From NCBI GenBank assembly GCA_017853715.1, contig JAFMIZ010000002.1:20128-84127 (forward strand): 64,000 nucleotides of DNA. Reading direction: 5' to 3'. Shown one piece after another: positions 24,993-44,700 of the stretch (position 1 is the first letter of the stretch; every line of letters starts with the position of its first letter). This DNA is from Pedosphaera sp. (lineage in GTDB: Bacteria; Verrucomicrobiota; Verrucomicrobiia; Limisphaerales; DSYF01). The notes beneath the pieces were generated by a model, which did no database searches, was not told the DNA's origin, and saw only the letters and a program-made list of their open reading frames with translations. The translations under genes and the position numbers were made by a program.

Positions 24993-25838
24993 GTGAAACA
25001 CACATATAAACAGGGCTTTCAGGGTTTCACCTTGATCGAATTGCTGGTGGTCATTGCCGTCATCGGCATTCTGTCCGCCCTGCTGCTTCCCACCTTGGGC
25101 CGGGCGAAGCAGAAGGCGTGGGGCATCTACTGCATGAACAACCACCGGAGTTTGGCACTGGCTTGGCGGATGTATGCCGACGACAACTCCGACCAGATCA
25201 CCTACGCCAGCGAATACCCGTGGGATCCATCCACCTACAGCCGTGCCTGGGTCACCGGCACACTGGACACGAATCCTAACAACCGGTCCAACTGGGACCC
25301 CGATCAGGATATCACCAAGAGCCCGCTCTGGCCGTACTGCGGCAACAGCCTGCGCATCTGGAAATGTCCGGCAGACGACTCCAAAGTCGTGGTTGATGGT
25401 GAGGAGAAACCCCGCGTTCGCAGCATGTCCATGAACATCTACCTCGGCGGCTGGGGCGGTGGCTACGGCGGCTGGGGCGAAGAAATCACGCGCTGCCGAC
25501 TCTACATGAAGACGTCCGACATCAATGACCCCACACCCAGTGAGATGTTCGTGCTCTTGGACATGCGGGAGGACAGCATTGATATGGGAAACCTTTTGGT
25601 AAACATGTCCGGCTGGCCAACCGACACCCAGGAATACCGCTTCTGGGATTTACCGGGGGTCTATCACGCCGGGTCCTGCGGATTCTCCTTCGCTGACGGC
25701 CACTCGGAGATCAAAAAATGGCGCGACCCGCGAACCACGCCTCCCCTCGTGCGCGATGGATTCGTGAACGACGTCTTCATGTCCCCCGACAACCCCGACA
25801 TCACTTGGTTGCAGCAACGGGCCACGCGCCCCAAGTAG
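24993..25838 (+). CDS. prepilin-type N-terminal cleavage/methylation protein with H-X9-DG (DUF1559-like) domain
   Basis: QGFTLIELLVVIAVIGILSALLLP is the class III signal (G/F cleavage site, Glu at +5). The C-terminal YHAGSCGFSFADG fits H-X9-DG exactly. Confidence 0.85.
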   Translation: MKHTYKQGFQGFTLIELLVVIAVIGILSALLLPTLGRAKQKAWGIYCMNNHRSLALAWRMYADDNSDQITYASEYPWDPSTYSRAWVTGTLDTNPNNRSNWDPDQDITKSPLWPYCGNSLRIWKCPADDSKVVVDGEEKPRVRSMSMNIYLGGWGGGYGGWGEEITRCRLYMKTSDINDPTPSEMFVLLDMREDSIDMGNLLVNMSGWPTDTQEYRFWDLPGVYHAGSCGFSFADGHSEIKKWRDPRTTPPLVRDGFVNDVFMSPDNPDITWLQQRATRPK

Positions 25839-27765: not shown

Positions 27766-29055
27766 CTATACCTGCGCCAGCTGAAGTTTCGGATCAAACG
27801 GAAGCCCCAGCGCCAGTTCGTCCGGCAGCGGGCAAAACTCACGGATTCGCGCCCACAGGTGCGAGAAGTCCTTGTTCAAATCGCCCGACAGGCAGTCAGT
27901 GATTTCGTCCGCCGCTTCCGGATATTTCATGATGACATCCTTGAAGGAGAAGTCCGGGTTGTAAAAGGCATACACCAGCTTGCGCATGTTCTCGATGCTC
28001 CGGCGCAAGGCCACGCCGTAGTCCGTGAAGCGCTCCGGAGAGAAATCCCGCGCCACCAGCGCTTCATGCACCGCGTCACTTGCCATCACCCCGCTCTTCA
28101 AGGCCAGCAACAACCCACTGCTGAAAACCGGGTCCAAAAAGCAAAACGCATCGCCCGCCAGCAACAACCCCGGGCTGTAACAATGCCGCGAGTGATGGGT
28201 ATATTCACTGGTGAGGTAGTAAGGCCCGACCTGTTTGCCCACGGAAAGATGATCCTTGATCCAAAGGTTCTCCTCCACCTCACGATCAAAGATAGCCTTT
28301 GGTTCTTTCACCCCACCGCGCGCCAGATACTTGCCCTCCGCCACCACGCCCACGCTGACCATGTCATTGTGCTGCGGGATGTGCCAGAACCAGCCCTTGT
28401 CCGGAATCATCGCCACCGTGGTCTGGCCTTCATCGATGCCTTGCTCGCGCTTTGACCCTTGGTAATAGGTCCACACCGCCACTTTGTTGAGATAGGGGTC
28501 TTTGGCACGCCAACCGTTGCGCACCGCCGCGAAGCTCTCCTTACCCGAGCAATCCAACGTGATGGGCGCGCGGAATTCCATCAACGTACCATCCTTGCGG
28601 ATGGCCTTCACGCCGAGCACGGTCTCACCCTGGCGCACCAGTTCGCGCACGGCGATTTCCTCCATCACCTCAGCGCCCCGTTCACGCGCATGGTTGAGCA
28701 ACATCTCATCAAACTCACTGCGCAAGACCTGCCACGTTTGCGCGACGGTTTCCTTGTCGTAGCGAGTGAAGAAATAGAACGGCTGACTGGCCTGGCCATT
28801 GGGCTGGGTGAACTGGACGCTGAATTTCTTCTGAAATGCCGACCCTTTCAGCTTGGGGATCAGCCCCAGACGCTCCAGGGGCCCGTAGGTGAAAGGGATC
28901 ATGGACTCACCCACGTGATAACGCGGAAACTTTTCCCGCTCCAGGACAAGGACGCGGTGTCCCTGCCCGGCCAGCATGGCCGCCGCACTGGCCCCGGAGG
29001 GACCGCCACCGATGATGATCGCGTCCCAGTTAGTATCGGCAGTATTTGAAATCAT
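27766..29055 (-). CDS. FAD-dependent oxidoreductase, flavin-dependent halogenase-like
   Basis: 429-aa ORF. The dinucleotide fold is DAIIIGGGPSGASAA. GWFWHIP (nt 28375-28392) matches the WxWxIP motif. FCFLDPVFSSGLLLA matches the FxDPxFSSG-type second FAD motif. Confidence 0.7.
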   Translation of the reverse strand: MISNTADTNWDAIIIGGGPSGASAAAMLAGQGHRVLVLEREKFPRYHVGESMIPFTYGPLERLGLIPKLKGSAFQKKFSVQFTQPNGQASQPFYFFTRYDKETVAQTWQVLRSEFDEMLLNHARERGAEVMEEIAVRELVRQGETVLGVKAIRKDGTLMEFRAPITLDCSGKESFAAVRNGWRAKDPYLNKVAVWTYYQGSKREQGIDEGQTTVAMIPDKGWFWHIPQHNDMVSVGVVAEGKYLARGGVKEPKAIFDREVEENLWIKDHLSVGKQVGPYYLTSEYTHHSRHCYSPGLLLAGDAFCFLDPVFSSGLLLALKSGVMASDAVHEALVARDFSPERFTDYGVALRRSIENMRKLVYAFYNPDFSFKDVIMKYPEAADEITDCLSGDLNKDFSHLWARIREFCPLPDELALGLPFDPKLQLAQV

Positions 29056-29121: not shown

Positions 29122-32100
29122 TTAACCACCGACACCCACCAACTGACGCCTCGCCTCCTCAATCCATGCCTCATCGGGCAGCGCATACGGACGGAACGTC
29201 TCCAGCCAGCCTTCGTGGCCGTTCCAGAGGATCGCCCGGTGCAGCCCCAAATTGTTCGCCTGCGGCGACTCGATCAGACTCGCCGAGTCGTTCGCGCTCA
29301 TCTGGAACACCACGCGCATTTCAAATTCACTGACCGCCTTGCGGCTCAGCATGCGCATCAGGTTGTTGTAGGTGTCGCAGGTCGCGATCACATGGAAACC
29401 CAGCCCCGCGCCTTCCGTGACCAGCTGGTTGAACTGCAAACCCGGATTCGCGCCCGCATCGGCATCCAGCGAGAAACTCATCTCCTCGTCGAACTTGAGC
29501 TTCTTGTTCCGCTGCAGACCGTGAACCAGCAAAAAGGTCTCGGGCGCATCAGAGCCCGCATTATCTGCGCGTTGCTGCTGCTCGGCGGCCAAGTCGTTCA
29601 TCACCTCTTCCACGTCACCGGGGCGGACCAGTCTCACGTCATGCGGAATGATGGAGACGGCCAGCTCCAAGAACTTCGCCTCCGCCGAGTCCGGTGCGCT
29701 GCAATCAAACACCAGGAAGCGTGCGCCCGACTTGGGATACTGTGCCGCGAGTGAAATCAACGAGACCCCCAGCATGGCCAAAGCCGCTTCGTCGCGTTGA
29801 CCAATGATCAGGAGATGGCTGCCACTGGCGCGACGGAACAGGGCCTCGGTGGGGCCTTTGATGGAATTGGGCGCCCCCAGCCAAACGCGGGCGGCGGGCA
29901 CCGTCTCCCTGGGTGGCGAGGCGAGGGCAGCGCGCAGCATAAGATTGTCACGCACTTCAGCCGGGGCATTGCCCTCGAACACGATCGGCGCGCGCTGACC
30001 GAATTGCTTCAGTTCCGCAACCGCATGGGCCTTCTCCAACCACTGATCACGGGCCTGATCAGGCAGCCAGACGACTTGGAACGGGCTGTTGCCCTGAAGG
30101 GCGCCCGCATCGTCATTATAGATCGCCTCGCCCGGCCGGGAAAGCAACCGCGGCGCGGGGTTGTCCTCGTTCATGATGAGATACGCGTCGGCCTCGTTGC
30201 ATTGCAGCGCGATGCGCACCACCATCTGGCCCATCGTCGCACGGGCCAGCGTGTAGGCCCCGCCGAGCGTCTGCGAACCGAGGATCACGTGAATCCCAAA
30301 CGCACGACCCTGACGAACAATCCGGTCGAGCAGCAAGGACGCCCCCTGCGAAACGCGGTCATCCTCCACAAACAACTCCTGAAACTCGTCGATCAGGAGC
30401 AGCACGCGCGGCATCGGCTCGGCGCCGCCGGCGCGCTTATAACCGGCGATGTCCTGTGCGCCGAGTTTCCGGAACAGATCGCCGCGCCGCTTCAATTCCT
30501 CGTCCACGCGTTGCAACACGCTCAGGCCAAACTCACGATCGCTCTCAATGGCGATGACGCGGGCATGCGGCAGCTTCTTCGTCGCGTAGCACTTGAACTC
30601 GACGCCTTTCTTGAAATCCACGAGGTAGAACTCCACCTGCTCCGGACTGCACCACAGCGCCAGATTGGTGATGATCACGTGGAACAGAGTGGATTTGCCG
30701 GACCCCGTCTTGCCCGCGACGAGTGCGTGCTGACGGGTGCCCTTGCCGAGTGCGAGATACTGCAATTTCGTGGCACCCGTGCGGCCCACCGGCACGCGCA
30801 GCTCACTGGTGGTGTCGAGACTCCAGAATTCATTCTTCCCCGGAGCAACCTCAACGAAAGGCATCTCCACCCGGTTCGAATCAATGCTATCCTTGCCGAT
30901 CTGGTGCAGCAGCCGTGTGGCCTGCTCGGCGCCCGGCGGTCCGTCGAGCGTCAGCTTCAAGCCATCCCAGTTGGCATTCGCAAGGGCGAACCCCTCGCCC
31001 TTGGGCACGACGCTGAGCATGTTCTGGCGCAATTCTTCGGGGATGAACTCCATCGGCGCCGTCTTGCGCTGGTCCCAATGAATCAGCAGATGCACCCCGC
31101 AACGCGGTCCCGCAGCGGCAATGTTCATCAAGCGTTTCACCGCCACGTCGCTGAAGTTCGCGGGGAAGTCGGCGATGACGAGGAAATGGTATTTTTCGGC
31201 CATGCGCCCGGCCTGCGCATTGTATTCGGCGAGCGTCTCGTATTCGTTGCGCAGATACATCTGCGTGACCTTTTCGATGTGCTCGTTGAGGTCGACCAGG
31301 CGTTGCTCGAACTGCGCCTGCTGCGTCCAGATGCGGCTGTTGATCAACCGCTCCTCGAAGTCGGCCAGATGCATGAGGCCGGCAAAATTCTGTCCGAGCC
31401 CCACGGGATCAAAAATCGTGAACGCCAGGCGTCCCGGCGGAGCGCTGGTCAACAGCCGCAGAATCAGGTTGTTCAACGTGGCGATCACGCGGTCCTGCCC
31501 GGCCTGCTTGCTCTCGAACAAGAGCGACGCATGGCGGGGGACCTCCAGAAGCAGCGGCACCGTGAACCGACGCGGCCCGGGCAAAGTAAACCGCTCATCC
31601 TTGAGCGTGACGCCCGACAGCGTTTCGATGTCCACCGACACGCTGGCAAAGCGGGCGGCATGCGCGAAGTCGTCCGGCAGCGCGAATTGCTTCCAGCGGT
31701 CCGACGCCCAGTCAGGAAAGAGCTGCTCGGCCCACTGCGTCGTCGCCTCGATTTCAGCGTAGGCGGGCAGAACGATGTTCTGCCAATCCGCGGCCAAGGC
31801 CGCCAGGATTTCGTCACGCGCGGCAGTCAACCTGGCCAAGCCGTCGCGCTGAGCAGCCTCCAATTGAGCTTTGCGTTCCAAGGATTGCTCGGTGAGCTGA
31901 CGGACGAGCGTGGCGTGCTGGTGCTCCACCACTCCGAGCCGATGCAGCCGCCGCCCGTCGGTGACAGAATTCAGCCGCCGAGCCCGATCTTCCAAGCGTC
32001 GGCCCCAGTCGTCCCGGAGCGCTTTTGCTTCGACCTGCTTGTGTTTCCACAACCGGTTCAATTCGCCGATCTGACTGGCGTGCGTACTGGTGATCCTTTC

Positions 32101-33054
32101 CGTCTCAGCGGCAAAGCTGGCATCCGCTCTCTGCGCGCAGATGTCATGCAGTCTGGCGGCATCCGCCAGCGCGTTCGCCGCCGCTTTGGCCGGAACCGCC
32201 GCCAGCTTCCTGCCCAGGAAGTAGAGCGCGAAGACCAACACCAGTGCGCCTGCCACCCCCCCTCCCGTTGGCGGCAAAGGGGCGGCGTTGAAATCAAATC
32301 TCCGCAATGCCGGCACCAATATGAAGGGCGCGGCAAGAATCACCGGAACCCACAACCAGATGGGCAGCATCTTGAAGAAGAGCGGCAGCACGCGCGCGTT
32401 GATGGCGCCAAGCTGCTTGGACGCTTCCGCCAGCCGGGCGCGCATGATCTCAAGCAACACATCCTCGTGCTTAGAAACATCCAAAGAGGCCGGAGCCGAG
32501 GTGTGGGAAACCAATCTCGCCAGCGCTCCGTAAGCACCCAGTGAAGATGGAATATCCGCCTGCAGTTGCGCCAATTCGGCTTGGGCCTGAGCAAGATTGG
32601 TGTTGAAGGTCTCGTAGCGGGCCTTGTTCGCCGCCGTGTCGGTTTCGCGCACGCGATCCGCCTCGAGCAAATCGCGCTGTATCGCGAAGGTGTGGCGGCC
32701 CTCTTCAGCATCGATCTCCGCCATCTTGGCGATACGGGCGCTTCCCAGCGCCTTGGTCAGGCGCGCCTTGCGACTGGCGTATTGGGCCTCAATGCCGTTA
32801 CGGCGACGTTCCGTCTCCTCGCGAGCCGACTCCATATCCGTGGCAAAGCGGGAACGTTCAGCTTCGAGCGCCTGTTCGTATTGGGCACGCACGCGAGCTG
32901 TGCGCGTGGAATAATCCTTCTCCGCCGCCGCACTGCGCGTCACGACGTCGCGCACGCGGTCGCGCAGCTGGCCGAGGCGTTCGACGATGGCGCCGACACC
33001 CGCGAGCTTATTCGCAGTCGGAGCGGACTTGGTTGAGGGCTCGTTCAAGGGCAT
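29122..33054 (-). CDS. membrane-anchored multi-domain FtsK/SpoIIIE-family ATPase (EssC/EccC-like candidate)
   Basis: About 1310 aa. Canonical Walker A HALVAGKTGSGKST is at nt 30688-30717 and Walker B VLLLIDEF at about 30382-30405. It is flanked by two FtsK-like modules that lack the P-loop (SLLFESKQAGQDRVIATL and HLLIIGQRDEAALAML). Hydrophobic segments span aa 224-283. Long coiled-coil regions lie before and after them. I prefer the ATG at 33054; the track starts at a TTG at 33057. Confidence 0.85.
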   Translation of the reverse strand: MPLNEPSTKSAPTANKLAGVGAIVERLGQLRDRVRDVVTRSAAAEKDYSTRTARVRAQYEQALEAERSRFATDMESAREETERRRNGIEAQYASRKARLTKALGSARIAKMAEIDAEEGRHTFAIQRDLLEADRVRETDTAANKARYETFNTNLAQAQAELAQLQADIPSSLGAYGALARLVSHTSAPASLDVSKHEDVLLEIMRARLAEASKQLGAINARVLPLFFKMLPIWLWVPVILAAPFILVPALRRFDFNAAPLPPTGGGVAGALVLVFALYFLGRKLAAVPAKAAANALADAARLHDICAQRADASFAAETERITSTHASQIGELNRLWKHKQVEAKALRDDWGRRLEDRARRLNSVTDGRRLHRLGVVEHQHATLVRQLTEQSLERKAQLEAAQRDGLARLTAARDEILAALAADWQNIVLPAYAEIEATTQWAEQLFPDWASDRWKQFALPDDFAHAARFASVSVDIETLSGVTLKDERFTLPGPRRFTVPLLLEVPRHASLLFESKQAGQDRVIATLNNLILRLLTSAPPGRLAFTIFDPVGLGQNFAGLMHLADFEERLINSRIWTQQAQFEQRLVDLNEHIEKVTQMYLRNEYETLAEYNAQAGRMAEKYHFLVIADFPANFSDVAVKRLMNIAAAGPRCGVHLLIHWDQRKTAPMEFIPEELRQNMLSVVPKGEGFALANANWDGLKLTLDGPPGAEQATRLLHQIGKDSIDSNRVEMPFVEVAPGKNEFWSLDTTSELRVPVGRTGATKLQYLALGKGTRQHALVAGKTGSGKSTLFHVIITNLALWCSPEQVEFYLVDFKKGVEFKCYATKKLPHARVIAIESDREFGLSVLQRVDEELKRRGDLFRKLGAQDIAGYKRAGGAEPMPRVLLLIDEFQELFVEDDRVSQGASLLLDRIVRQGRAFGIHVILGSQTLGGAYTLARATMGQMVVRIALQCNEADAYLIMNEDNPAPRLLSRPGEAIYNDDAGALQGNSPFQVVWLPDQARDQWLEKAHAVAELKQFGQRAPIVFEGNAPAEVRDNLMLRAALASPPRETVPAARVWLGAPNSIKGPTEALFRRASGSHLLIIGQRDEAALAMLGVSLISLAAQYPKSGARFLVFDCSAPDSAEAKFLELAVSIIPHDVRLVRPGDVEEVMNDLAAEQQQRADNAGSDAPETFLLVHGLQRNKKLKFDEEMSFSLDADAGANPGLQFNQLVTEGAGLGFHVIATCDTYNNLMRMLSRKAVSEFEMRVVFQMSANDSASLIESPQANNLGLHRAILWNGHEGWLETFRPYALPDEAWIEEARRQLVGVGG

Positions 33055-33217
33055 CAATGTTGTTCACGGCAGCATTCACGCCGCCCATCAGTTCTTCGAT
33101 GAATCGCTTCTCGAATTCAAGGGCCTTGGCATCGCGCCAGGAATCCTTGGTCGCGGCCCAGTCTGCGACCAACTGCTTGGTGAGTCCAAGCAATCTGTTC
33201 TTGGTGGCGCTGGTCAT
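33008..33217 (-). CDS. 69-aa helical protein with W-x-D hairpin motif (WXG100-like, paralogous to the 90-aa protein)
   Basis: An ATG at 33217 opens MTSATKNRLLGLTKQLVADWAATKDSWRDAKALEFEKRFIEELMGGVNAAVNNIDALERALNQVRSDCE. Composition and codon usage look genuine. SWRDAKALEFEKRF shares W0, D2, F8 and F12 spacing with the 90-aa protein. The 3' end overlaps the ATPase start by 47 nt. Confidence 0.55.
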   Translation of the reverse strand: MTSATKNRLLGLTKQLVADWAATKDSWRDAKALEFEKRFIEELMGGVNAAVNNIDALERALNQVRSDCE

Positions 33218-33275
33218 CGGCAGTGCGGGAATGGGTTGATGGCGCGGTGGAGTGGTGGGAACACAAGTCTCGCCA

Positions 33276-33368
33276 TCGTCCTCGTTCTCGATTCGGACCC
33301 CGTGTACGAGGACGAGGAGGAGGCATGGTCGAGATTGCGGAACGCTCCAGCACTCCAACACTCCAGCG
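33276..33368. repeat. intergenic 10-bp perfect hairpin plus 8-bp tandem repeat (ctccaRcR x3)
   Basis: tcgtcctcgt (33276-33285) pairs with acgaggacga (33306-33315) across a 20-nt loop. ctccagca ctccaaca ctccagcg lies at 33345-33368. Both sit between the 181-aa and 69-aa genes. Confidence 0.6.
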
Positions 33369-33392
33369 CACCGCTCATTCGTCCGTTCACGG

Positions 33393-33938
33393 TCATGGGT
33401 TCGATTCCTCCCCGCTTTGCCCGTTGGCCGGCGGTTCGCCCACAGGCTTCGGCGCAGAACCGGCCACGGATATTTCACTGTATTCAGCCAGGGTCTTGAT
33501 GACTTGATCCAAGTAGGCCAGGGCGTTCGCCAGATCGTGGGAAATGTTGTGCCGGAATTTCTCCACCTGCTTGGCCACCGGCTCAACCCGCTGGTCGTAT
33601 TGCCGGTTCCAAACCTTGACCACCCGCAGCTTATCCTCGGCGGCGCGCAACTCGTGGCGTGCCCTTTGCACTGCCTGCTGTTGAACAAAGGAGGCGTCGC
33701 GCATCCCGGAAATCTGCGCGCTGAACAACTCCTGCTGGCGCATCTCCAGCTCCTTGTGCTTTCGCCGAATCTGGCCCTCCCAAAAGGTGATGCGGTCGTT
33801 CTCGAGCCACATCCGCGTGCGCAACACCTCTTCTGACACCTCGTCGATCACCCGCCCCGCTTTCTCGCGATACACGATGAGCCGCGAGCGAAAGGCTTCA
33901 ATGGCTTCAAGCGAAGTGACTTTGGCGCGTTCAGGCAT
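33393..33938 (-). CDS. 181-aa helical protein containing a WEGQ (W-x-G) motif and a disordered acidic/Pro-rich tail
   Basis: I chose the ATG at 33938 (MPERAKVTSLEAIEAFRSRLIVYREKAG). The protein contains ...RITFWEGQIRRKHKELEMRQQELF... and ends in SAPKPVGEPPANGQSGEESNP. It sits between the two small W-x-D genes, on the same strand. Confidence 0.65.
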   Translation of the reverse strand: MPERAKVTSLEAIEAFRSRLIVYREKAGRVIDEVSEEVLRTRMWLENDRITFWEGQIRRKHKELEMRQQELFSAQISGMRDASFVQQQAVQRARHELRAAEDKLRVVKVWNRQYDQRVEPVAKQVEKFRHNISHDLANALAYLDQVIKTLAEYSEISVAGSAPKPVGEPPANGQSGEESNP

Positions 33939-33953
33939 GGGGGCGACGGTGAT

Positions 33954-34036
33954 AGTTGCAGGTTGCAGGTTGTAAGCTGCCGGTTGGCTCCGCCGCTGCA
34001 TCTGCAACCTGCAGCTTGAAACCTGCAACTTGAAAC
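33954..34036 (-). promoter_or_regulatory. long imperfect inverted repeat (intercistronic hairpin) between the 90-aa and 181-aa genes
   Basis: The reverse complement of the left arm agttgcaggttgcaggttgtaagctgc (33954-33980) is gcagcttacaacctgcaacctgcaact. The right arm is gcagcttgaaacctgcaact (34011-34030). The gcagcttNNaacctgcaac core matches at 17 of 19 positions. The spacer is about 30 nt. The tgcaggttg / caacctgca motif occurs four times. Confidence 0.5.
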
Positions 34037-34054
34037 GGGCGGGCGGTCATCGGG

Positions 34055-34327
34055 TCAGTGTTGATCGAGATACTCCTCGATCCGCTTCGCTTTGCGGAGC
34101 AGGAAGGGCGTTTGGACGTTCGAGGCTTCGATAAAGCGCTTGAGCACTTTCATCGTGTCGCGGAATTCCTCGGCGAACTTGGCGTGCTCCTGGTCTGACC
34201 ACGTGTCGCCGAGGGCGGCAAAGCGCGCTTGCAGGAGTGACATCCGGTTCTGCAGCTCGATATTGAACCGCTTGAGCTCCTCGGCGAACCGGCGGACTTC
34301 GCCGGGGTCCATTATGGCTTGTGGCAT
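34055..34327 (-). CDS. 90-aa WXG100-like (ESAT-6/EsxA-like) helical hairpin protein
   Basis: An ATG at 34327 is preceded by AGGAAG 4 nt upstream. The sequence is MPQAIMDPGEVRRFAEELKRFNIELQNRMSLLQARFAALGDTWSDQEHAKFAEEFRDTMKVLKRFIEASNVQTPFLLRKAKRIEEYLDQH. The central TWSDQEHAKFAEEF aligns with NWEGQAFSRFEEQF of S. aureus EsxA (sequence from memory). Size and predicted helix-turn-helix layout fit WXG100. Confidence 0.7.
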   Translation of the reverse strand: MPQAIMDPGEVRRFAEELKRFNIELQNRMSLLQARFAALGDTWSDQEHAKFAEEFRDTMKVLKRFIEASNVQTPFLLRKAKRIEEYLDQH

Positions 34328-34495
34328 GGTGCTTCCTGAGGTTGAACGTTGGGTAAAAGTTAGCAGGTGTTGGAATCCGGGCCAATACATTCCCCGCCGA
34401 GCCCCACGCCTTGACGGACGCTGCCACCACTGCGAAGGTTCAACCGCTTGGAGCAGGAATCCCAAGTGGCGGCGACAGGCAACGTGTTCGACCGC

Positions 34496-37400
34496 ATGGC
34501 AACCGCTCCCGCTGTGCAATCCCTGCCGCAGCGACTGGAGCGAGGCGGAGCTTTGTATTGCACCGGCATCAGCGCACCCGCACAACCCTTCCTCGCGGCG
34601 CTTTTGCATCGGCAGTTCCCGCGCCGCCCCGTGGTCATCGTCACCAGCAGCCTCAAGACTCAGGAATGGTTACAGCAGGATGTGGAGACGTGGTTGAACA
34701 CCGCCCGGCCCCCATCCCCACCCCAGAGCCCTGATCCTCGAACCAAGACCCTATTCTATCCCGCTTGGGAAACCCTGCCACACGAAGCGCGGCTACCGCA
34801 CGCAGACGTCATCGCCGACCGGCTGAACACGCTGATCGCTTTGTCGCACGGCGAACCCTCATCGGCGCGCCACCCCACCTGCCCCATCATCGCCAGTGTG
34901 TCGGCTTTGCTGCAACGCACCTTTTATCCAACGGACCTGGCAAAGCGCACGCGGGCGCTGAAACGCGGCGATCGCATCGAACCGCTGGACTTGGTCGATT
35001 GGCTCGAAGCGCAGGGCTACGAGCCGGAAGCGCAGGTCACCGCCAAAGGCGAACTCGCTTTGCGCGGCGGCATCCTCGATGTTTTCCCCCCCACGAGCCC
35101 ATGGCCGCTGCGGTTGGAATTCTTTGGCGATGAACTGGAATCGTTGCGCGAATTTGACCCGCTTACGCAGATCTCCCGTGAGGAAGTTGAGTCCGCCACG
35201 CTGCCCCCCGCCGGTGAGCTGGGCATTCTGAAGCAGGCGATCGCCGCTCCCCCCTCCGATCACCGACTCGCCAGCCTGCTCGATTATCTGCCGGACAACG
35301 CCCTGCTGGTGCTGTGCGAGCCGGAATCATTGGAGGAACAGGCCGCGCTCTATGCCTCGCAGATCCCACCGGGCGATCCGTTCTTGATCACATGGGCGGA
35401 CTTTCAGCGGCAGGCGGAGGCGCGGGGGATGACCTTGCTGTCGCTGGGCGAATTCCAGCCAGCGGATGTTGACCACACCCAGTCGGAGACCGGCGCCCCA
35501 AGTCTGGACTTGAACCTGTTGTCGCTAGACGCGTTTCGCCCGGTGGTCGAAAAGGCAGCCGAGCCGCAAGTCGCCCAAGCGCAGCGCCGGGAGTTCTTTG
35601 AGCAGATGCATCGCTGGCTGCGGCAGGGCTACGCGGTGAACGTGTTCTGCAACAATGACGGCGAACGCCAGCGCTTCTCAGAAATCTGGGCGGAGATGGG
35701 TCTAGGGTCTGGCATCCCAGATCTAAGGTCTGGGGCGGAAACCCAGACCCAAGACGCCAGGCCCAAGACCCAAATAGGCACGCTGGGACGGGGCTTCATC
35801 TCGGATGCCGCGAAGGTGGTCGTCGTCACGGACGCAGAAATCTTCGGACGCTACAAGCGTCAGCAGCCGCGCCGGCTCAAATCCATCCACGCCCAGGCCA
35901 CCAAATCCGCGTTGGACATCGATTTCACGCACCTCGAAGAAGGCGATCTGGTGGTTCATCTGCAGCACGGCATCGGGCGGTTCGTCGGCCTGAGACCGAT
36001 GCCGGCCACGGTCGGCCATCGCCCATCACAAATCGCCAATCATCCGTCCGAGGAGTGTTTGGTCATCGAATATGCCGCGAGCGAACCCAACCAGCCTGCG
36101 CCACGCTTGTATGTGCCGGTCACCGAAGCCCACCTCGTGAGCAAATACGTGGGCGTGGGCAAGGTGCGTCCGCCCCTGAACGCACTCGGCGGCACGCGCT
36201 GGCACAAGGCGAAGGAACAAGCGGAGCGCGCCGTACGCGACGTGGCGTCCGAACTGTTGCGCATCCAGGCCGCGCGCGCATCGCAGCCGGGGTTTTCATT
36301 CGGGCAGGATACGGCGTGGCAACGGGAGTTCGAAGCGTCCTTCGTCTTTGAGGAAACCCCGGACCAGTGGCGCGCCATCCAAGAGGCAAAGGCCGATATG
36401 GAACGTCCCAAGCCGATGGATCGATTGATCTGCGGCGACGTGGGTTTCGGCAAGACGGAAGTGGCAATTCGCGCGGCGTTCAAGTCGGTGATGGCCGGCA
36501 AACAAGTGGCCATCCTCGTGCCCACCACGGTGCTCGCACAACAGCACTTCAACACGTTCCGCGAGCGCATGGCGGATTATCCCGTCCGCGTGGAGCTGCT
36601 CTCGCGCTTCCGCCCTCGCCGGGCGCAGGCCAAGGTGATTGAAGACCTCGCCGGCGGTGCCGTGGATGTTGTCATCGGCACGCATCGGCTCGTGCAGAGC
36701 GATGTGGTGTTCAAGGACCTTGGGCTCGTGATCATCGATGAAGAACAGCGGTTCGGCGTCTTGCACAAGGAAAAGTTCAAACGGCTGCGCACGCATGTGG
36801 ACGTGCTCACGCTCAGCGCCACGCCCATTCCCCGAACGCTCTACCTCGCACTCACCGGTGCGCGCGACATGAGCACCATCCAGACGCCGCCACAGGACCG
36901 GCTGCCGGTGGAAACCATCGTCACCGCCTATGACGAACGCATCATCCGCGACGCCATCCAACGCGAGTTGAACCGGGGCGGACAAGTATTTTTCCTCCAC
37001 AACCGCGTTTCCACCATCGAGACGATGGCGCAAAAAATCCGCGCCCTGGTGCCCCAGGCGCGCATCCTCGTCGGGCACGGGCAGATGCACGCGGATGATC
37101 TGGAAGAAGTGATGGCCACGTTCATCAACGGAGAGGCGGATGTGCTGTTGTCCACCACGATCATCGAGAGCGGTCTGGATATCCCCAATGCGAACACCAT
37201 CATCATTGATCGTGCCGACCGCTTTGGGCTGAGCGATCTCTACCAGCTGCGCGGTCGCGTGGGCCGCTACAAGCACCAGGCCTACGCCTACCTGCTGATC
37301 CCGCGCCACGCGGGATTGCTCTCGGATGCACGCAAGCGCATCAGCGCCATGAAGCAATACGCCACGCTGGGCAGCGGTTTCAAAATCGCCATGCGGGACC

Positions 37401-38324: not shown

Positions 38325-41300
38325 CTAGGGTGACAATTTGACGCGATAAAACCGCTGCGGCACTCCCGGAATGGACGCATCCTCATAGCCCAGAGTCATT
38401 TGGAGCGGGCCAGCGTTGGTGGCCGAATTCGGGATATCCGTCCACGGTCCGGCTGCCCAGCTACTTTGTTGGACCTGATAACTGCGTCCCGGCATCGAAT
38501 TCCAGTGCAGCACGGCCTGGCCCGCAGAAACCGAGAGGGCTTGAACGACGAACCCAAGTTGGGGGTCAAGGCGATCGAACAATCCATCCGCGTTGGCATC
38601 CATCAGTGCTGCTGTGGGGATGACGAAGAACTCGCCGGGGTCGAGGTTTGGCCCGGAACCGGCGGGCGACTGATTGACCAAAGGGCTGCCGTCAGCAGTT
38701 CCATACGCGGCGGCGGCGATGTAAATATTCGTCGGCACCGCACCGAAAGCCGACGCGAGATCGATGACACCCTCGAACACGCCGCTGGTTGACGATGACT
38801 TGGCAATCTGCGAGCCGCTGCCAGCATTGTTCCAAACCACGTAACTGTTCTGGCTCTCCGTGGCCATGTAGGGCTTGGTGTTGGTCACCGCCACAGTGCC
38901 CGCTTTGGACCAAGGCGCGCCCACAGAGCCAGAGGGCAAGAGAGCATCACTGACGAAGAGGTAATGGTCATTCGGTCCAGTGGTGCCGGGGGATTGCGTG
39001 GCGACGTAGAGTTTGGTGCCGCGCAACGCGGCGAAGAGCCCGAGGCCGTTGCTCGACACGCGATAGCCCGCGAAGTCCAGCAAGCCGTCCAAACTAAAAG
39101 GCGGATAGTTGGTGGGAACAGCCCCCGGGCTCACCGCAAAGTGCCAGTCTGAGCCACCGTTGTTGTCCCAAGTGCCCGCGCCGTTGTTGAACACGCAATC
39201 CAACTGCGTCGCGTTCGCCGGGATGCTCGCCCTGTATTCCCACCAGTTCGAGTCTGCATTGTAAGTCATGACCGGGTCGGGAGTCAGCACGGTGCCGCCC
39301 TGCCAGTTGTTGTAGCCGAGGTGAAGGTAAACCGGATTCGCCGAGGCAAGGTTACGCCCAGCGGGATTGTATCGGATGGTCACGTTGCTGCCGGCGACGG
39401 GATTGGTCGGCGAAAGGGTCACCACCGTGCCACCCCCACCGCCCGTGTCCGAACCCGCGCCTGAATCCACCCAAACATGCTGGATGTCGCTCTGATGAAC
39501 GTTGCCTTTGCCATCGGTGGCGCTGACGTAGTAGTCGAGCAGGACGTTCGTGTAACCCGTGACCTTCGCCCAGTAATAATCCGCCATGGCTGCCGGGGTG
39601 AGGAAGAAATCGACGCTCCCGTTGCCGGTGATGTTGCCCGGGGGGATGGTGCGCTTGGTCATGGGCAATGGCACCCACGCGCCAACGCCGGGGCCACCGG
39701 CATAAGTGTCGTTGGCGTTGTCAGCCAGCGGATTCACGCCGTCGCTGTCGGCCCGGACATAAAGCGTCACGTTCGTCACACCGCTTACGTCGAACACCTG
39801 CGTCCAGATGTGAAAGGCCGTGGAGTAAGGGGGACGCCCCTCAAACCCAACCGGCTGATAACCCGTCAGCGGCCCCCAACCTTTGCCGCCCGGATTCCAC
39901 GGGAAGCGTTGCGGCTTGAAGACGGTGGGCGGCGTCTGGTCGAGGGCAGCGTTGCCAATGACATTGGTCGCGAAAACCATCGCACGGTTTACGGCGAGCG
40001 TCTGCTTCACTTCATCGTCGAGGGACGTGCCGTAATACATGAAGCCGCTGTCCAAGCCGCCGAGGTAATAATGCCACGCCTGCTCGACTGCGTTGGGATT
40101 GTTGTTCACGCCCGAGCGGCTGACGGGTTCCTGAATCTTCCACGTCTGCACGGTGCCGCCGTTGCTGATGTGAATCTGCTCAGCCGTCTCGCAGTAATTG
40201 GCCCCGGCCACGAGCACGGCCCAATTCCGCCAATCCTCCGTCCAGCCGGGCGTTTCAAGATCATACCACGTGCGCGGATCGGTGGCGTTGTAGGCGGGGT
40301 CGCTCGAAGCGCGCGTAGGCGGCCAAAGCCAGTTGATGAACTGCGGATGGCCCCAGTCACCGGCAGCATTCACCCACGCGCCGTCTTCGACATGGACGAC
40401 GGCATTGGCGGGCACGGGATGGTCAGCGAGGAACTGCTGGATGGTGGTGGGGCGATAGCCCTTCGCCGCAGCGGCATTGAACAAACCAGGCACTGATTCC
40501 TGATAATAGCTGTTGCCGCCGCCCCAGGCGTTGTCCCCGTCGTGCGCCATCAGGACGATGCTCGGTCGTGCCGGGTCGTTGAAGGGCGCGATGTGCGCGT
40601 CGATGTCGCCCGTGCCCATCGTGCCGAACCCGTTTTGGTAGCTGAGCAAGTCGCACATCGGCACCACGGTGATGAAGCTCTCGGCACCGTTGGCCGGATT
40701 CACGTATTTGGTCCGATGCGCCTGGTAGGCGAATGGGGCCGGGAACGCACCGCCGCGCCCGTCAATCGTGCCATTCCACCACTGGTTTGCGGGAACCGTT
40801 GGCCCGACTTGGTCCCCGCGATTGGGCGGATCACAGTTCCAGCCGCTATTCCCCTTCTGCGCCACGTCGAGATAGTTAGAACACGTGCGGGCGAGGTGAC
40901 TATTGGCAATGATGCTCCACTCGTAGCCCTCTTCAGCGAGGATGGGGATGATCGTTTCGGAGAACGCAGCCTCAATCGGCCAGAATCCTTTCGAGTGATC
41001 ACTTTTGTCGGGATTGCCGCCCCAACTTTTCCACCAAACCTCCTTGAAGATTTGAATTTCCTTCCGCAGAACGCTTTTCGGCAGCAACGGACTGAACGCG
41101 TGGTGATACGTCTGCCCCACCATGTCCGCCCGAGGATAGCCACCCGTGGTGCGATACGTCGCCGATGAACCGCGGGCCGTCGTGTAGCCGCTGTTCCAAC
41201 CGGAACCGTAGCCATACATGCCCGCGCTGCCGAGTGACCAGATATTCTCCTGCAACGCTCCGGAGTAGCTGACCGAAGCGCCGCCATCAGGATGCGAGAG

Positions 41301-41675
41301 AATGGTGTTGATGGAACTCAAACCACCGCCCTGATAGGCCTGGACCCGGTCCGCCTTGTCGAAGACCGCATCAAATTCGCCACCGTCACCGCTGACGAGG
41401 GCGTTGCGCGGATGTTTGTAGGTTGATCCAGGATAGAAGTTGCCCGCGTTGGCCAGCTTCAAATTGATGGAGTCCGCCGCGAACTGGTAACGATTCGTCT
41501 GGCTGCCATTCGGATTACGCTCCGGCCAGTAAATTGGCTGGTGCAAATGCCAGTGGCAGGCCAAGTGAACCGAGTTGTTCGCTTGAGCCGCGGGCAGAGC
41601 GGCTGCCAGCAACGCCAGCGCCCGCAGAACTGTAAGGGACAACTTCATGTCTTGGGACAAAGCTTTCAACGTCAC
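38325..41675 (-). CDS. secreted glycoside hydrolase family 57 (alpha-glucan-active) with starch-binding-like domain and C-terminal FYRVKLSP module
   Basis: 1116-aa ORF with a signal peptide (LRALALLAAALPAAQA). GH57 regions: HLACHWHLHQPIYW (HQP), GFWPIEAAFSE (nucleophile Glu context), MAHDGDNAWGG (acid/base Asp context). A CBM25/53-like segment reads VYLHLGYNNWQGG ... VFNNGAGTWDNNGGSDWHF. Confidence 0.8.
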   Translation of the reverse strand: MTLKALSQDMKLSLTVLRALALLAAALPAAQANNSVHLACHWHLHQPIYWPERNPNGSQTNRYQFAADSINLKLANAGNFYPGSTYKHPRNALVSGDGGEFDAVFDKADRVQAYQGGGLSSINTILSHPDGGASVSYSGALQENIWSLGSAGMYGYGSGWNSGYTTARGSSATYRTTGGYPRADMVGQTYHHAFSPLLPKSVLRKEIQIFKEVWWKSWGGNPDKSDHSKGFWPIEAAFSETIIPILAEEGYEWSIIANSHLARTCSNYLDVAQKGNSGWNCDPPNRGDQVGPTVPANQWWNGTIDGRGGAFPAPFAYQAHRTKYVNPANGAESFITVVPMCDLLSYQNGFGTMGTGDIDAHIAPFNDPARPSIVLMAHDGDNAWGGGNSYYQESVPGLFNAAAAKGYRPTTIQQFLADHPVPANAVVHVEDGAWVNAAGDWGHPQFINWLWPPTRASSDPAYNATDPRTWYDLETPGWTEDWRNWAVLVAGANYCETAEQIHISNGGTVQTWKIQEPVSRSGVNNNPNAVEQAWHYYLGGLDSGFMYYGTSLDDEVKQTLAVNRAMVFATNVIGNAALDQTPPTVFKPQRFPWNPGGKGWGPLTGYQPVGFEGRPPYSTAFHIWTQVFDVSGVTNVTLYVRADSDGVNPLADNANDTYAGGPGVGAWVPLPMTKRTIPPGNITGNGSVDFFLTPAAMADYYWAKVTGYTNVLLDYYVSATDGKGNVHQSDIQHVWVDSGAGSDTGGGGGTVVTLSPTNPVAGSNVTIRYNPAGRNLASANPVYLHLGYNNWQGGTVLTPDPVMTYNADSNWWEYRASIPANATQLDCVFNNGAGTWDNNGGSDWHFAVSPGAVPTNYPPFSLDGLLDFAGYRVSSNGLGLFAALRGTKLYVATQSPGTTGPNDHYLFVSDALLPSGSVGAPWSKAGTVAVTNTKPYMATESQNSYVVWNNAGSGSQIAKSSSTSGVFEGVIDLASAFGAVPTNIYIAAAAYGTADGSPLVNQSPAGSGPNLDPGEFFVIPTAALMDANADGLFDRLDPQLGFVVQALSVSAGQAVLHWNSMPGRSYQVQQSSWAAGPWTDIPNSATNAGPLQMTLGYEDASIPGVPQRFYRVKLSP

Positions 41676-41779: not shown

Positions 41780-44700
41780 ATGCTTTCTCTTAAAACATTT
41801 CGTCGCCACCGCAGGAGCACGTCGTTCATCCGGACCGCCGGCCTGTTTCTCATGCTGATCGCCCTGCTCGGCGGCAGCCGCCCCGCCGCGCGCGCCGAGG
41901 CGATGCTGCAGTTATTCAACGTGAATTGGGATGAGCTCACGCAGAAGATTCCCGAGATCGCCGAAGCCGGTTACACCAGCCTGTGGCTGCCGCCGCCCGC
42001 CAAAGCCGGCAGCGTGTTCTCCGTCGGCTACGACTTGTTCGACCCTTTCGATCTCGGCGATCTGAATCAACGCGGCACGGTCCGCACGCGTTACGGCACC
42101 AAGGCGGAACTGCAGCAACTCGTCGCCACGGCGCATCGCTTCGGCATCCGCGTGTATTTCGACAACATCATGAACCATCGCGGCTTTGATGTGCCCCGCT
42201 ACACGCTAAGCACCCCCACCAATCTTTATCCGGGCCTGACCATCGAGGATTTCCACGTGCGCCGCCAAGCCGACGGCACGTATCGCAACTGGGATCCGGT
42301 GAACAACTACAACAGTCTGTTCGAGGTCCAGAACCGTCCGCTCTTCGGCCTGCTCGACCTCGCCAACGAGCCAGGCAGCGTGAACAACAACTTCGGCCTG
42401 AACGAGGGGAACACCACGAACAAAGTTTCCTTCCTCCGCCAGCCGGGCTTCCCGCATTACTACATGGACACCAACCTGCCCGCGATCAATGGCCCGTGGC
42501 GTCCGTTCAATTCCACCAATGGCGACCCAGTCATCGAGGACCTCGGCTCGTATCTCATCCGGTCCGCCATGTGGATCATGGCGGAGACGCGTTGTGATGG
42601 CTTCCGGCTCGACGCGGTGAAGCACACGCCCGCTACGTTCTTCGGCGACACCACGGCGACGCCTTTCGGCTACCTTGGCGGGATCCAGACGATGTTCGAC
42701 CATGTGCATGGTTATGGCACGAACACCACCGGTTACGGCTACGAGGAAGGCGACGACAACCGCAACAGTTGCTTCGACACTGAGGCCCCCCGCAACGATG
42801 CGCTGCTGTTCGGCGAGCACCTGGGCGAACCGCCCAGCTTTCAGGAGTACCTCGATCGCGGGATGCGCCTGCTGAACACGCCCTATCACTTCGAGTTCAA
42901 CAACAAGTTCGGCAACCCCGGCGGAACGCTCGCCGGCCTTGATCAACGCGATTACGAGCCTTACCCCAGCGCCTTCCCCGGGGCGCAAAGCGTCCTCTTC
43001 GCGCAGAGCCATGACGACAACATCTCCATCCGCCGCGAACTGCACAATGCCTACAACTTTTTCCGTGAGGGCCTCCCCTCCATCTATTCCGATGGCTACA
43101 ATGAATCGGGCGCGCCGGACTATTTCCCGAAGATCGCCAGCGCGCCCTACCTGGGCCAGTTCGGTGACCCCAAGATGCCGGAACTCGCCTACCTGCATCA
43201 CCAACTGTCGCGCGGCGGCACGCGGCCCCGTTGGAGCGACGCCGACATCGCGGCGTTCGAGCGCTACGACTATCGCGAGTCCGGCAGCGCCGCGGACCAG
43301 ACCGTGGTGTTGTTCGCGATGAACGACAATTACGGCTTCCCCGGCGACATCGCGTTCGTCGATGGCGAGGGCGAAACCTTCCCGGCAGGCGTGAACAAGC
43401 CGCCCGGCACCGGCGGCGATGCGCAAGGCATTGCCGTGAGTTTTCCACCCGGGTCCGTGCTCGTGCAACTCGCCACGTCCACCCCGGGCTACGATCGCAC
43501 TTACAAGAAGGCCACCGTTCGCCCGGCCACCAACAGCCGCGCAGCCGCGAGCGGCAGCGGCGGCAGCACCGTCTATGTCGGCGGGCAAACCATTCCCGTC
43601 GGCGGCGGCGCGATTGAAATCCTCGTCCCCAGCGGCGGCTACGTGGCCTACGGCTATCAATGGCCCGAAGCGAGCAAGGCCAACAATCGCCGGGATGTGA
43701 TCCAATTCCGCCAGAATGGGGCGAGCCCACTGCGCGTCACGACCTGCCGGCGTGACGGCTTGAACGGAGACACCAATTTTCTCCCAGCCTATCCTTTCAA
43801 GATGCGCGGCAGTGTGGATGACCAGGGCAACTTGATCACGGGCGTGAACGTCTCCAACAAGACCTACGCGATCGACATCCCGGTGCTGACGAATGCCAAT
43901 TTCGACATTTTCTTCGAGACCGACTCGTCTGCAAACAACCTCCTCGCCAAGCTGGACGGCGGGATTGATCTGAACAGCCACTTGAACCTCGGTTCGACCC
44001 ACTTGGACAAGCGGGACAATCGGCCAGGCGAAGCAACCGACGTATTTTTGGGCTACGAACAAACGGCGTTCGTTTCCCGCTACGGCGCCGAGAAATTCGC
44101 CGCCCAAGTGACCAATCGCAACAACACCGTCTCTGATGGCGCAGAGACCTACCACTACACCGTGGGCACGACGAACACCCTGATCGTAAACGGCACGGGC
44201 AACGATTGGACGCTCACCGTGGGGACCGCGGCGTGGGCCACGCACAACCCCGGCACCACCAATGGCTACGTCGGCGCGGGCGGCGGCACGCAGCGCTCTC
44301 CGCTGAACCCAACCGCTGGACAGGCGGTGGATATTCATGTGCGCGCCGGGTTTCAGTTCCAGGTCAGCCGCTGCCTGGTCTATTACACGACCGATGGCAC
44401 GAACCCCGAGGGCGCCTTCGGCGTGGGACGCGGCACCACCAAAGTCGTCTCAGGCAGCTTTGTGAATGACGATGCCATCGACGGCAACATCGATTGGTGG
44501 AAGGCCACCATCCCGGCGGTGGACAACACCGGCGGCGCGCAAATCCGCTACAAGATCGCCCTGTTCAACGACTCCATCCAACCCATCGGCGACAACCTGG
44601 ATGTGAAGCGGTTCGGGCGAACCACTTTTGCCATCACCAACTTCAATCCAACGAGCGCCACGGTCTGGCTGCACAACAACCGCAACACGAACGACGTCGT

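Follow-up and report, generated by a model that had tools for sequence, protein, structure and literature searches.

The question raised by this locus is whether three tandem genes for small helical proteins, encoded next to an ATPase of the FtsK/SpoIIIE family in a member of the Verrucomicrobiota, are parts of a type VII-like protein-export system. The genes lie in a stretch of 64,000 nucleotides (nt) from Pedosphaera sp. (GenBank assembly GCA_017853715.1, contig JAFMIZ010000002.1, positions 20,128 to 84,127 of the forward strand), the whole of which is referred to below as the window. A first-pass annotation of this DNA had described three tandem small open reading frames (ORFs) at 33008-34327 and related them to the substrates of type VII secretion systems (T7SS). 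The ORFs are present exactly there, all on the minus strand, the motifs quoted for each of them are found in the translations, and together with the ATPase gene downstream they form a single operon that is conserved across the Verrucomicrobiota. We favor, with moderate confidence, the reading that this cassette is a minimal type VII-like (WXG100/FtsK-SpoIIIE) protein-export module of that phylum, where secretion itself is what we infer. Its features are the following, with protein lengths in amino acids (aa):

34055-34327, minus strand: g1, coding for a 90-aa WXG100-family protein, by sequence of the HP0062 type, in which the turn motif W43-x-D45 is invariant
33393-33938, minus strand: g2, coding for a 181-aa protein of an uncharacterised family, whose model is a long hairpin of antiparallel helices ending in a disordered tail
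33008-33217, minus strand: g3, coding for a 69-aa protein modelled as a helix-turn-helix, in which both W27-x-D29 in the turn and the C-terminal D-C-E are invariant
29122-33054, minus strand: the ATPase gene, coding for a 1310-aa, EccC/EssC-like FtsK/SpoIIIE protein
34332-34337, minus strand: AGGAAG, a Shine-Dalgarno-like site 4 nt upstream of the g1 ATG, as read from the sequence
33939-34054, minus strand: the g1-g2 spacer, structured, with a long hairpin formed from GTTGCAG heptads
33218-33392, minus strand: the spacer between g2 and g3, which measures 175 nt and contains a strong hairpin

The arrangement was followed through related loci with g2 as the anchor. A scan of one genome per species yielded 37 loci, all in metagenome-assembled genomes (MAGs) of Verrucomicrobiota, and a metagenome scan with a single remote g2 (about 40% identical) yielded 48 more, giving 85 related loci altogether. 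Every sufficiently long locus in either set keeps the order g1-g2-g3-ATPase gene on one strand, and the ATPase gene is found about 1 kb downstream of g1, in the same operon, in all loci. The cultured Limisphaera ngatamarikiensis likewise carries four called genes for proteins of 90, 198, 68 and 1310 aa that are 4 nt apart or overlap, flanked by unrelated genes according to the gene calls. Analysis of the 37 genome loci revealed no further neighbor gene that is consistently conserved around the cassette.

Pairwise Nei-Gojobori comparisons gave median ratios of nonsynonymous to synonymous substitution (dN/dS) of 0.07 for g1 and 0.25 for both g2 and g3, at a proportion of synonymous differences (pS) of about 0.6. 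All three small genes are therefore protein-coding and under purifying selection. This includes the 69-aa ORF, whose conservation as a coding gene the first-pass annotation had presupposed and whose orthologs measure 68-70 aa in 35 genomes. The identity of g1 among relatives ranges from 67 to 98%.

Judged by its sequence, g1 is a genuine member of the WXG100 family and belongs to the HP0062 type. It contains DTWSDQEHAKFAEEF and scores 29.4 bits against the Pfam WXG100 model (PF06013), above the cut-off of 27.3, and 23.8 bits against NCBIfam TIGR03930, below the cut-off of 44.85. The database holds 3424 homologs, PF06013 is annotated on all 120 of those listed, and NCBI gives several orthologs the name 'WXG100 family type VII secretion target'. 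Among solved structures the g1 family profile comes closest to HP0062 (3FX7/2GTS) with E=2e-8, followed by EsxB with 1e-4, and an hhalign comparison with HP0062 gave a probability of 97% and E=1.5e-10 over the full length, at a sequence identity of only about 31%. As HP0062 is a helical hairpin that assembles into an antiparallel four-helix-bundle dimer, with the WRD motif in the bend of the hairpin (PMC3397514), full-length homology to its crystal structure predicts a helix-turn-helix hairpin of the ~100-aa class for g1 as well.

W43 and D45 are both present in every one of the 78 g1 sequences, so that the turn reads W-x-D in place of the canonical W-x-G throughout the family. The aspartate had been put forward as a variant signature. 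It is already published for HP0062, and because that protein carries WRD the exchange is a known subfamily trait rather than a new signature, and is no bar to WXG100 membership. Hydrophobicity analysis of the sequences revealed neither a signal peptide nor a transmembrane segment in g1, g2 or g3; the N-terminus of g1 is not hydrophobic, with a Kyte-Doolittle maximum of 0.41.

The second hallmark of the cassette is the ATPase. It matches Pfam FtsK_SpoIIIE with E=2e-31 and the models TIGR03924, TIGR03928 and TIGR03925 at the domain level only. Among structures in the PDB, EccC (4NH0) is matched with 6e-31, together with EccC5 and YukB, while FtsK follows behind at 3e-10. The protein starts with a coiled coil of about 220 residues, continues with two hydrophobic, predicted transmembrane helices (about 222-250 and 262-288) and has a single canonical Walker A motif, GKTGSGKS, at residue 781 in its central domain. 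Upstream of the latter a degenerate FtsK-like domain is weakly detected at 526-659 (E=0.0025). The C-terminal region shows no Pfam FtsK match and no canonical Walker A motif, and is covered only by the alignment to EccCb. We thus describe the protein as an EccC/EssC-like ATPase, predicted to be anchored by two membrane helices and to possess one catalytically competent P-loop domain. A search with PADLOC returned no known defense system, and the similarities it found for the ATPase (SspH, mad8 and HerA models) are confined to the generic P-loop. With this adjoining 1310-aa ATPase, best matched by EccC/EssC, and with g1 above the Pfam threshold, the T7SS context suggested by the first-pass annotation has gained support.

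The 69-aa protein g3 contains DSWRDAKALEFEKRF and was modelled by AlphaFold2 (mean predicted local distance difference test score (pLDDT) 82) as two helices, 3-24 and 30-68, connected by the loop D25-S-W-R-D29. The hairpin anticipated by the first-pass annotation is thus obtained for g3, with W-x-D in the turn, as it is for g1 by homology to HP0062. None of the 76 sequences departs from W27, D29 or C68, and K31 and E34-F35-E36 are invariant or nearly so in the same set. Note that about 17 residues of the first helix of g1 have no counterpart in g3, which departs from the full WXG100 format of about 100 aa with two helices of comparable length. It matched no Pfam or NCBIfam model, a profile search of PDB sequences returned noise only, and a Foldseek comparison of the model with the PDB gave no match, which is expected of a short all-helical model and uninformative either way.

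The description of g1 and g3 as clear paralogs was overstated. A BLASTP alignment of the two gave E=0.007 with 11/34 identities, and hhalign returned a probability of 17% with shallow and of 2% with broader alignments. When the g1 hidden Markov model (HMM) was run against the 935 six-frame ORFs of the window, g3 was the best match other than g1 itself, yet with E=0.7 only. Pfam WXG100 was matched below threshold by two of 20 g3 orthologs, the best with E=0.0023, and WXG100_2 by one. In the ortholog from locus L032 (E=0.008), the only such sub-threshold match with listed coordinates, the tryptophan occupies the same position of the WXG100 model as that of g1, in register with WXG. The pattern W-x-D-x5-F-x3-[FY] occurs in g1 and g3 only among those 935 ORFs (96,524 residues), where 0.08 matches are expected by chance, and the stricter D-[TS]-W-[SR]-D-x5-F-x3-F of the first-pass annotation is found in the same two proteins only. 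This shared pattern was defined post hoc; its positions are conserved independently within each family. Homology of g3 to g1 and WXG100 proteins is marginal at the level of sequence, and we regard g3 as a probable WXG100-like hairpin that is truncated in its first helix.

A distinct property of g3 is its C-terminus, D-C-E-stop (33011-33019, minus strand; residues 67-69), where Cys68 is the sole cysteine and the penultimate residue. It is kept even in loci in which the ATPase gene does not overlap this part of g3, and its invariance suggests a functional thiol that might serve in a disulfide, in metal binding or as a site of modification.

The protein g2 contains FWEGQ and ends in the tail SAPKPVGEPPANGQSGEESNP, rich in Pro, Ala, Ser, Gly and Glu. 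Its AlphaFold2 model (mean pLDDT 83.5) consists of helices 9-47, 50-77 and 80-160 and a disordered tail, 161-181. The W-x-G turn that had been proposed for it was not borne out, as in the model W-E-G is located within helix 2 (50-77) and not in the turn at 48-49. At position 55 a glycine is present in 11 of 84 relatives and an asparagine in 50, while W53 is kept in 79 and lost in five. The expectation that orthologs retain W-x-[G/D] thus holds for g1 and g3, in all 78 and all 76 sequences, and fails for g2. The residues that are near-invariant in g2 are F16, R17, R40, W44, W110 and Y153. Of these, Tyr153 (33480-33482, minus strand), invariant in 78 of 78 sequences and followed by [AST]-[ED], is placed where the last helix ends and the variable, disordered tail follows. 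This location is reminiscent of type VII export signals, although the YxxxD/E motif itself is not matched.

Neither g2 nor 34 diverse relatives were assigned to any family in Pfam or NCBIfam, and there was no match to WXG100, LXG, PE or PPE. Comparison of g2 with g1 and g3 in hhalign gave probabilities below 1%, a profile search of PDB sequences returned only noise, and BLASTP against the N-terminal coiled coil of the ATPase found no match. In Foldseek the model retrieved only generic coiled-coil hairpins, none of them significant (best E 0.06): the iSH2 region of PI3K p85, SMC, chemoreceptors, CdvB and Vipp1. With the glycine not conserved, the tryptophan outside the turn and no profile similarity, we rejected g2 as a member of the WXG or the LXG/PE-PPE groups, to which it had been likened. 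What it does have is their general build, in which a long hairpin of helices carries a C-terminal tail and a signal peptide is absent.

The g2 family is large. A profile search of 1.84 billion representatives retrieved 1958 clusters at E<=1e-3, of which 1212 were at E<=1e-10. Nearly all of these representatives have 170-220 aa and are matched end to end, and the best 150 span 112-265 aa. No toxin domain was found in the family. As judged from these lengths and end-to-end matches, g2 is therefore a stand-alone protein and not the N-terminal domain of polymorphic toxins.

The layout of the operon gives further indications as to how the four genes are expressed. As had been noted from the start, the AGGAAG site of g1 is the only one of its kind, and inspection of the operon sequence revealed no Shine-Dalgarno-like site before g2, g3 or the ATPase gene. 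In the window the 3' end of g3 and the 5' end of the ATPase gene overlap by 47 nt, and an overlap of 8-50 nt is found in nearly all related loci; such an overlap makes translational coupling of g3 to the ATPase gene probable. A 4-nt overlap (ATGA) connects g2 and g3 in 20 of 33 related loci, so that the overlaps at both junctions point to translational coupling.

The spacers of the operon are structured. The one between g1 and g2 folds with -42.4 kcal/mol (z = -2.4), and the heptad pattern GTTGCAG occurs seven times against 0.08 expected, with five of the copies in this spacer; weaker copies are found at 2042-2059 and 9896-9913. The g1-g2 spacers of related genomes fall into two length classes, 2-15 nt and 109-207 nt; within the long class, 15 of 19 have z < -2. 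The hairpin may be an intra-operon mRNA stabilizer, an attenuator or an element resembling repetitive extragenic palindromes (REP), and it may uncouple the expression of g1 from that of the downstream genes. The g2-g3 spacer, at 175 nt unusually long compared with relatives, folds with -71 kcal/mol (z = -3.0). An Rfam search of the operon returned only sub-threshold, miRNA-like hairpin noise.

Counterparts on plasmids were sought by tblastn, which found no match for g2 and two loci for g1, in Caballeronia and Helicobacter. On the Caballeronia plasmid pSBC2-5 (locus L089) a WXG100 protein and proteins of 436, 113 and 76 aa precede FtsK, within a TerY-P-like island of VWA, PP2C and kinase genes; the 436-aa protein possibly has a nuclease-like motif at its C-terminus. 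The plasmid of Helicobacter sp. (locus L090) encodes a WXG-like protein, an HNH endonuclease, an SMI1/KNR4 immunity protein and a 77-aa protein, and then FtsK. By position, g2 would correspond to the cargo slot of these plasmid cassettes and g3 to the small protein that adjoins the ATPase. We also observed a weak resemblance of the Helicobacter HNH toxin, at its N-terminus, to helix 1 of g1; the 76-aa Caballeronia protein in the g3-equivalent slot ends in ...YGCAQ.

As a protein-export module the cassette might work as follows. g1 would form a four-helix-bundle dimer like HP0062 and act as the core WXG100 component, either co-secreted or associated with the machine, while g3 would be a small WXG-like partner or adaptor and g2 a larger helical substrate that is bundled with g1 and/or g3. 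A hexamer of the ATPase would recognize such folded helical bundles and drive them across the inner membrane, and Tyr153 of g2 together with the flexible tail could be the element that the ATPase recognizes.

Several observations weigh against this export reading. The ATPase scores 113.9 bits against an equivalog cut-off of 509 for EccC/EssC and has one active P-loop domain, not three. EccB/D/E, MycP, EssA/EssB/EsaA/EsaB or an outer-membrane component are not conserved beside the cassette in the 37 genome loci, where the search covered the cassette neighborhood only. The HMMs of g2 and g3 gave no significant match to the proteins in the plasmid slots, so that their correspondence is an analogy by position and not homology, and the assignments of g2 as a substrate and g3 as an adaptor likewise draw on gene position and fold only. 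Experimental evidence of secretion does not exist for any WXG100/FtsK cassette of a diderm. Finally, the very strong conservation of g1, the lack of toxin and immunity genes and the housekeeping flanks would fit an intracellular or structural role equally well.

Among the alternatives, the one we take most seriously, while still considering it rather unlikely, retains a type VII-like machine and regards g2 and g3 as cytoplasmic subunits of the ATPase that are not exported themselves: adaptors, chaperones or regulators comparable to EsaB/TsxB, EsaE or Lap/Tap, with the real cargo encoded elsewhere in the genome. The overlap of g3 with the ATPase gene in nearly all loci would suit such a role, as would the helical ORF of about 76 aa in the same position of the proteobacterial plasmid cassettes. 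Both proteins are non-polymorphic and free of toxin domains, the cytoplasmic coiled coil of 220 residues in the ATPase could dock helical partners, and, according to the part of the source available to us, the export of LXG toxins by T7SSb requires small helical partner proteins (PMC9600955). However, neither the window nor the 85 loci contain a cargo candidate, g2 holds the position that is taken by the toxin in the plasmid cassettes, and neither g2 nor g3 resembles known targeting factors in sequence. Clearly less probable to us is a module that exports no protein at all and acts in the translocation of DNA or nucleoprotein, in remodelling of the envelope or membrane, or in conflict and defense like the WXG-FtsK pairs embedded in TerY-P systems. 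ATPases of the FtsK/HerA type also pump DNA, and the P-loop domain does match the SspH, mad8 and HerA defense models, yet these matches are to the generic P-loop and amount to no known defense system, and the ATPase as a whole is matched by EccC/EssC (6e-31) far better than by FtsK (3e-10) or coupling proteins. WXG-FtsK pairs do occur inside conflict islands with TerY-P, VWA, kinase and phosphatase genes (PMC4978471), the Caballeronia copy among them, but the surroundings of the verrucomicrobial cassette show no conserved conflict genes, be they for a nuclease, VWA, a kinase or others. The Foldseek matches of g2 include coiled coils of the ESCRT-III/Vipp1/PspA and SMC kinds, but are not significant; high conservation and a housekeeping neighborhood are also consistent with a role of this type.

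A chance origin of the shared motif, with g3 and perhaps also g2 as spurious ORFs in GC-rich DNA, is so improbable that it can be set aside. The window does contain many long spurious ORFs on both strands, g3 has neither a ribosome-binding site nor a Pfam match, and its pairwise similarity to g1 is weak. This explanation is refuted by conservation and by dN/dS: g3 orthologs of 68-70 aa are present in all loci, with W27, D29 and C68 in 76 of 76, and their median dN/dS is 0.25 at a pS of about 0.6. In addition, the g2 profile covers 1958 representative clusters along their whole length, the structure predictions of both proteins are confident, and independent gene callers called both genes in Limisphaera.

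Three further genes were considered as parts of the system and rejected. The mfd gene, divergent and upstream of the cassette in the window, is not kept beside it in related loci. A halogenase-like gene, directly downstream of the ATPase gene (27766-29055, minus strand; Pfam Trp_halogenase, 100 bits; motifs GGGPSG and WFWHIP), is of the flavin-dependent type and is found downstream of the cassette, on the same strand, in only 12 of 32 related loci; its linkage could reflect clade-specific synteny or a loose functional link. The third, a hypothetical protein of about 175-208 aa with no Pfam match, is encoded immediately upstream of g1 in about 18 loci (e.g. L003:461-1087), where it is often preceded by a HemN-like radical SAM gene, and is absent from the 64-kb window. 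Just beyond mfd lie genes for two very large carbohydrate-active proteins: 38325-41675 (minus strand) codes for a 1116-aa protein with GH57 and CBM53/CBM25 domains, and divergent from it 41780-45826 (plus strand) for one of 1348 aa that combines alpha-amylase with bacterial TSP3 repeats. At 24993-25838 the window encodes a pseudopilin-like protein of the DUF1559/N-methyl kind, which, like other genes of the window and all homologs, indicates Verrucomicrobiota of the Limisphaerales/Pedosphaerales type.

Some annotation issues are worth recording. Long ORFs that are antisense to real genes or overlap them, at 29797-32544 (plus strand; 915 aa, opposite the ATPase gene), 33008-33688 (minus strand) and 34055-34609 (minus strand), are artefactual, a result of the high G+C content. 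The same cause has led to N-termini that reach too far upstream in some of the g1 and g2 sequences in databases, which are given as 130-158 aa and about 200 aa, respectively. Cassette-bearing MAG records titled 'uncultured Bifidobacterium/Bifidobacteriaceae' or 'Akkermansia muciniphila' (L002, L004, L006, L008, L014, L018, L021, L027, L034, L036 and L026) look like taxonomic mislabels.

Going one step beyond the export module as such, we tentatively propose, as a possibility that we would not yet bet on, a distinct and self-sufficient type VII-like subtype of the diderm Verrucomicrobiota, and probably of a wider range of environmental bacteria, considering the at least 1200 clusters of g2 at E<1e-10. 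g2 and g3 would define this subtype: g1 and the truncated g3 would bundle with g2 as an LXG-like protein that has no toxin, and an EssC-like ATPase with a single active site would export the bundle for a housekeeping-type function in the envelope rather than for warfare. Type VII secretion is usually regarded as a Gram-positive and mycobacterial trait. The literature already contains the assignment to WXG100, the W-x-D variant and, since 2011-2012, the occurrence of such cassettes in Verrucomicrobia; added here are a four-gene architecture that is strictly conserved and two protein families without a name, g2 and g3. The WXG100/FtsK pair of the Verrucomicrobiota thus belongs to a fixed four-gene unit under strong purifying selection. 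By itself this finding leaves current concepts unchanged, and with Limisphaera ngatamarikiensis as a cultured carrier it offers a compact system for asking whether a WXG100/EssC-type machine works behind a classical outer membrane, and what its minimal set of components is.

Among the closest known counterparts is HP0062/HP0066 of H. pylori, for which the term minimal 'WXG100 secretion system' is used and which is placed in a group with an HNH/EndoVII nuclease (PMC4978471). HP0062, whose own function is unknown, resembles g1 in its W-x-D turn (WRD) and aligns with it over the full length, and both proteins lack a signal peptide and are clustered with an FtsK/SpoIIIE protein in a diderm (PMC3397514, PMC4978471). 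The H. pylori cluster differs in that a DnaK homolog and the HNH/EndoVII nuclease are reported for it (PMC4978471), and not g2 or g3. In Verrucomicrobia and other Gram-negative phyla WXG100 proteins were noted by Sutcliffe in 2011, as cited in PMC6471051 and PMC10765036, the latter adding that WXG100/FtsK pairs in Gram-negatives are 'not yet confirmed functionally'. Verrucomicrobia are also listed for the diderm modules of 'solo WXG + distinct YueA-like ATPase' of Zhang et al. 2012 (PMC3482391, Table 1 note 6). As far as the definition in that note goes, the cassette agrees with it, in its solo WXG-domain protein, the single Walker A motif at 781 with a weakly detectable degenerate domain beside it, and the Verrucomicrobiota host. 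The two extra small proteins g2 and g3 do not appear in the portions of Zhang et al. 2012 and Sutcliffe 2011 available to us. Moreover, the modules are presented there as 'mobile versions of T7SS', whereas the cassette is a stable four-gene unit in at least 85 loci without genes for mobile elements or toxins.

With the LXG toxins and their partners Lap1/Lap2, or EatA with TapA1/TapA2, the cassette may be compared in idea only, with g2 in the place of the toxin and g1 and g3 as small proteins beside the ATPase (the accessible parts of PMC9600955 and of a 2026 bioRxiv preprint). In contrast to these systems g2 has no LXG motif, LXG Pfam match or toxin domain, and there is no immunity gene at the locus. 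From T7SS proper the cassette is set apart by an ATPase in which a coiled-coil N-terminus replaces the FHA domains and one P-loop is active instead of three, by the W-x-D in place of the W-x-G turn, and by its diderm host with a classical outer membrane; the 2024 survey that defined T7SSc-j covers Bacillota and Actinomycetota only (PMC11217815). With T7SSa, b and c-j it would share the two universal components, a WXG100 hairpin protein and a membrane-bound ATPase, here one best matched by EccC/EssC (PMC11217815). It also has small helical proteins without signal peptides, and as in T7SS the esxA-like gene comes first and is alone in having a good ribosome-binding site.

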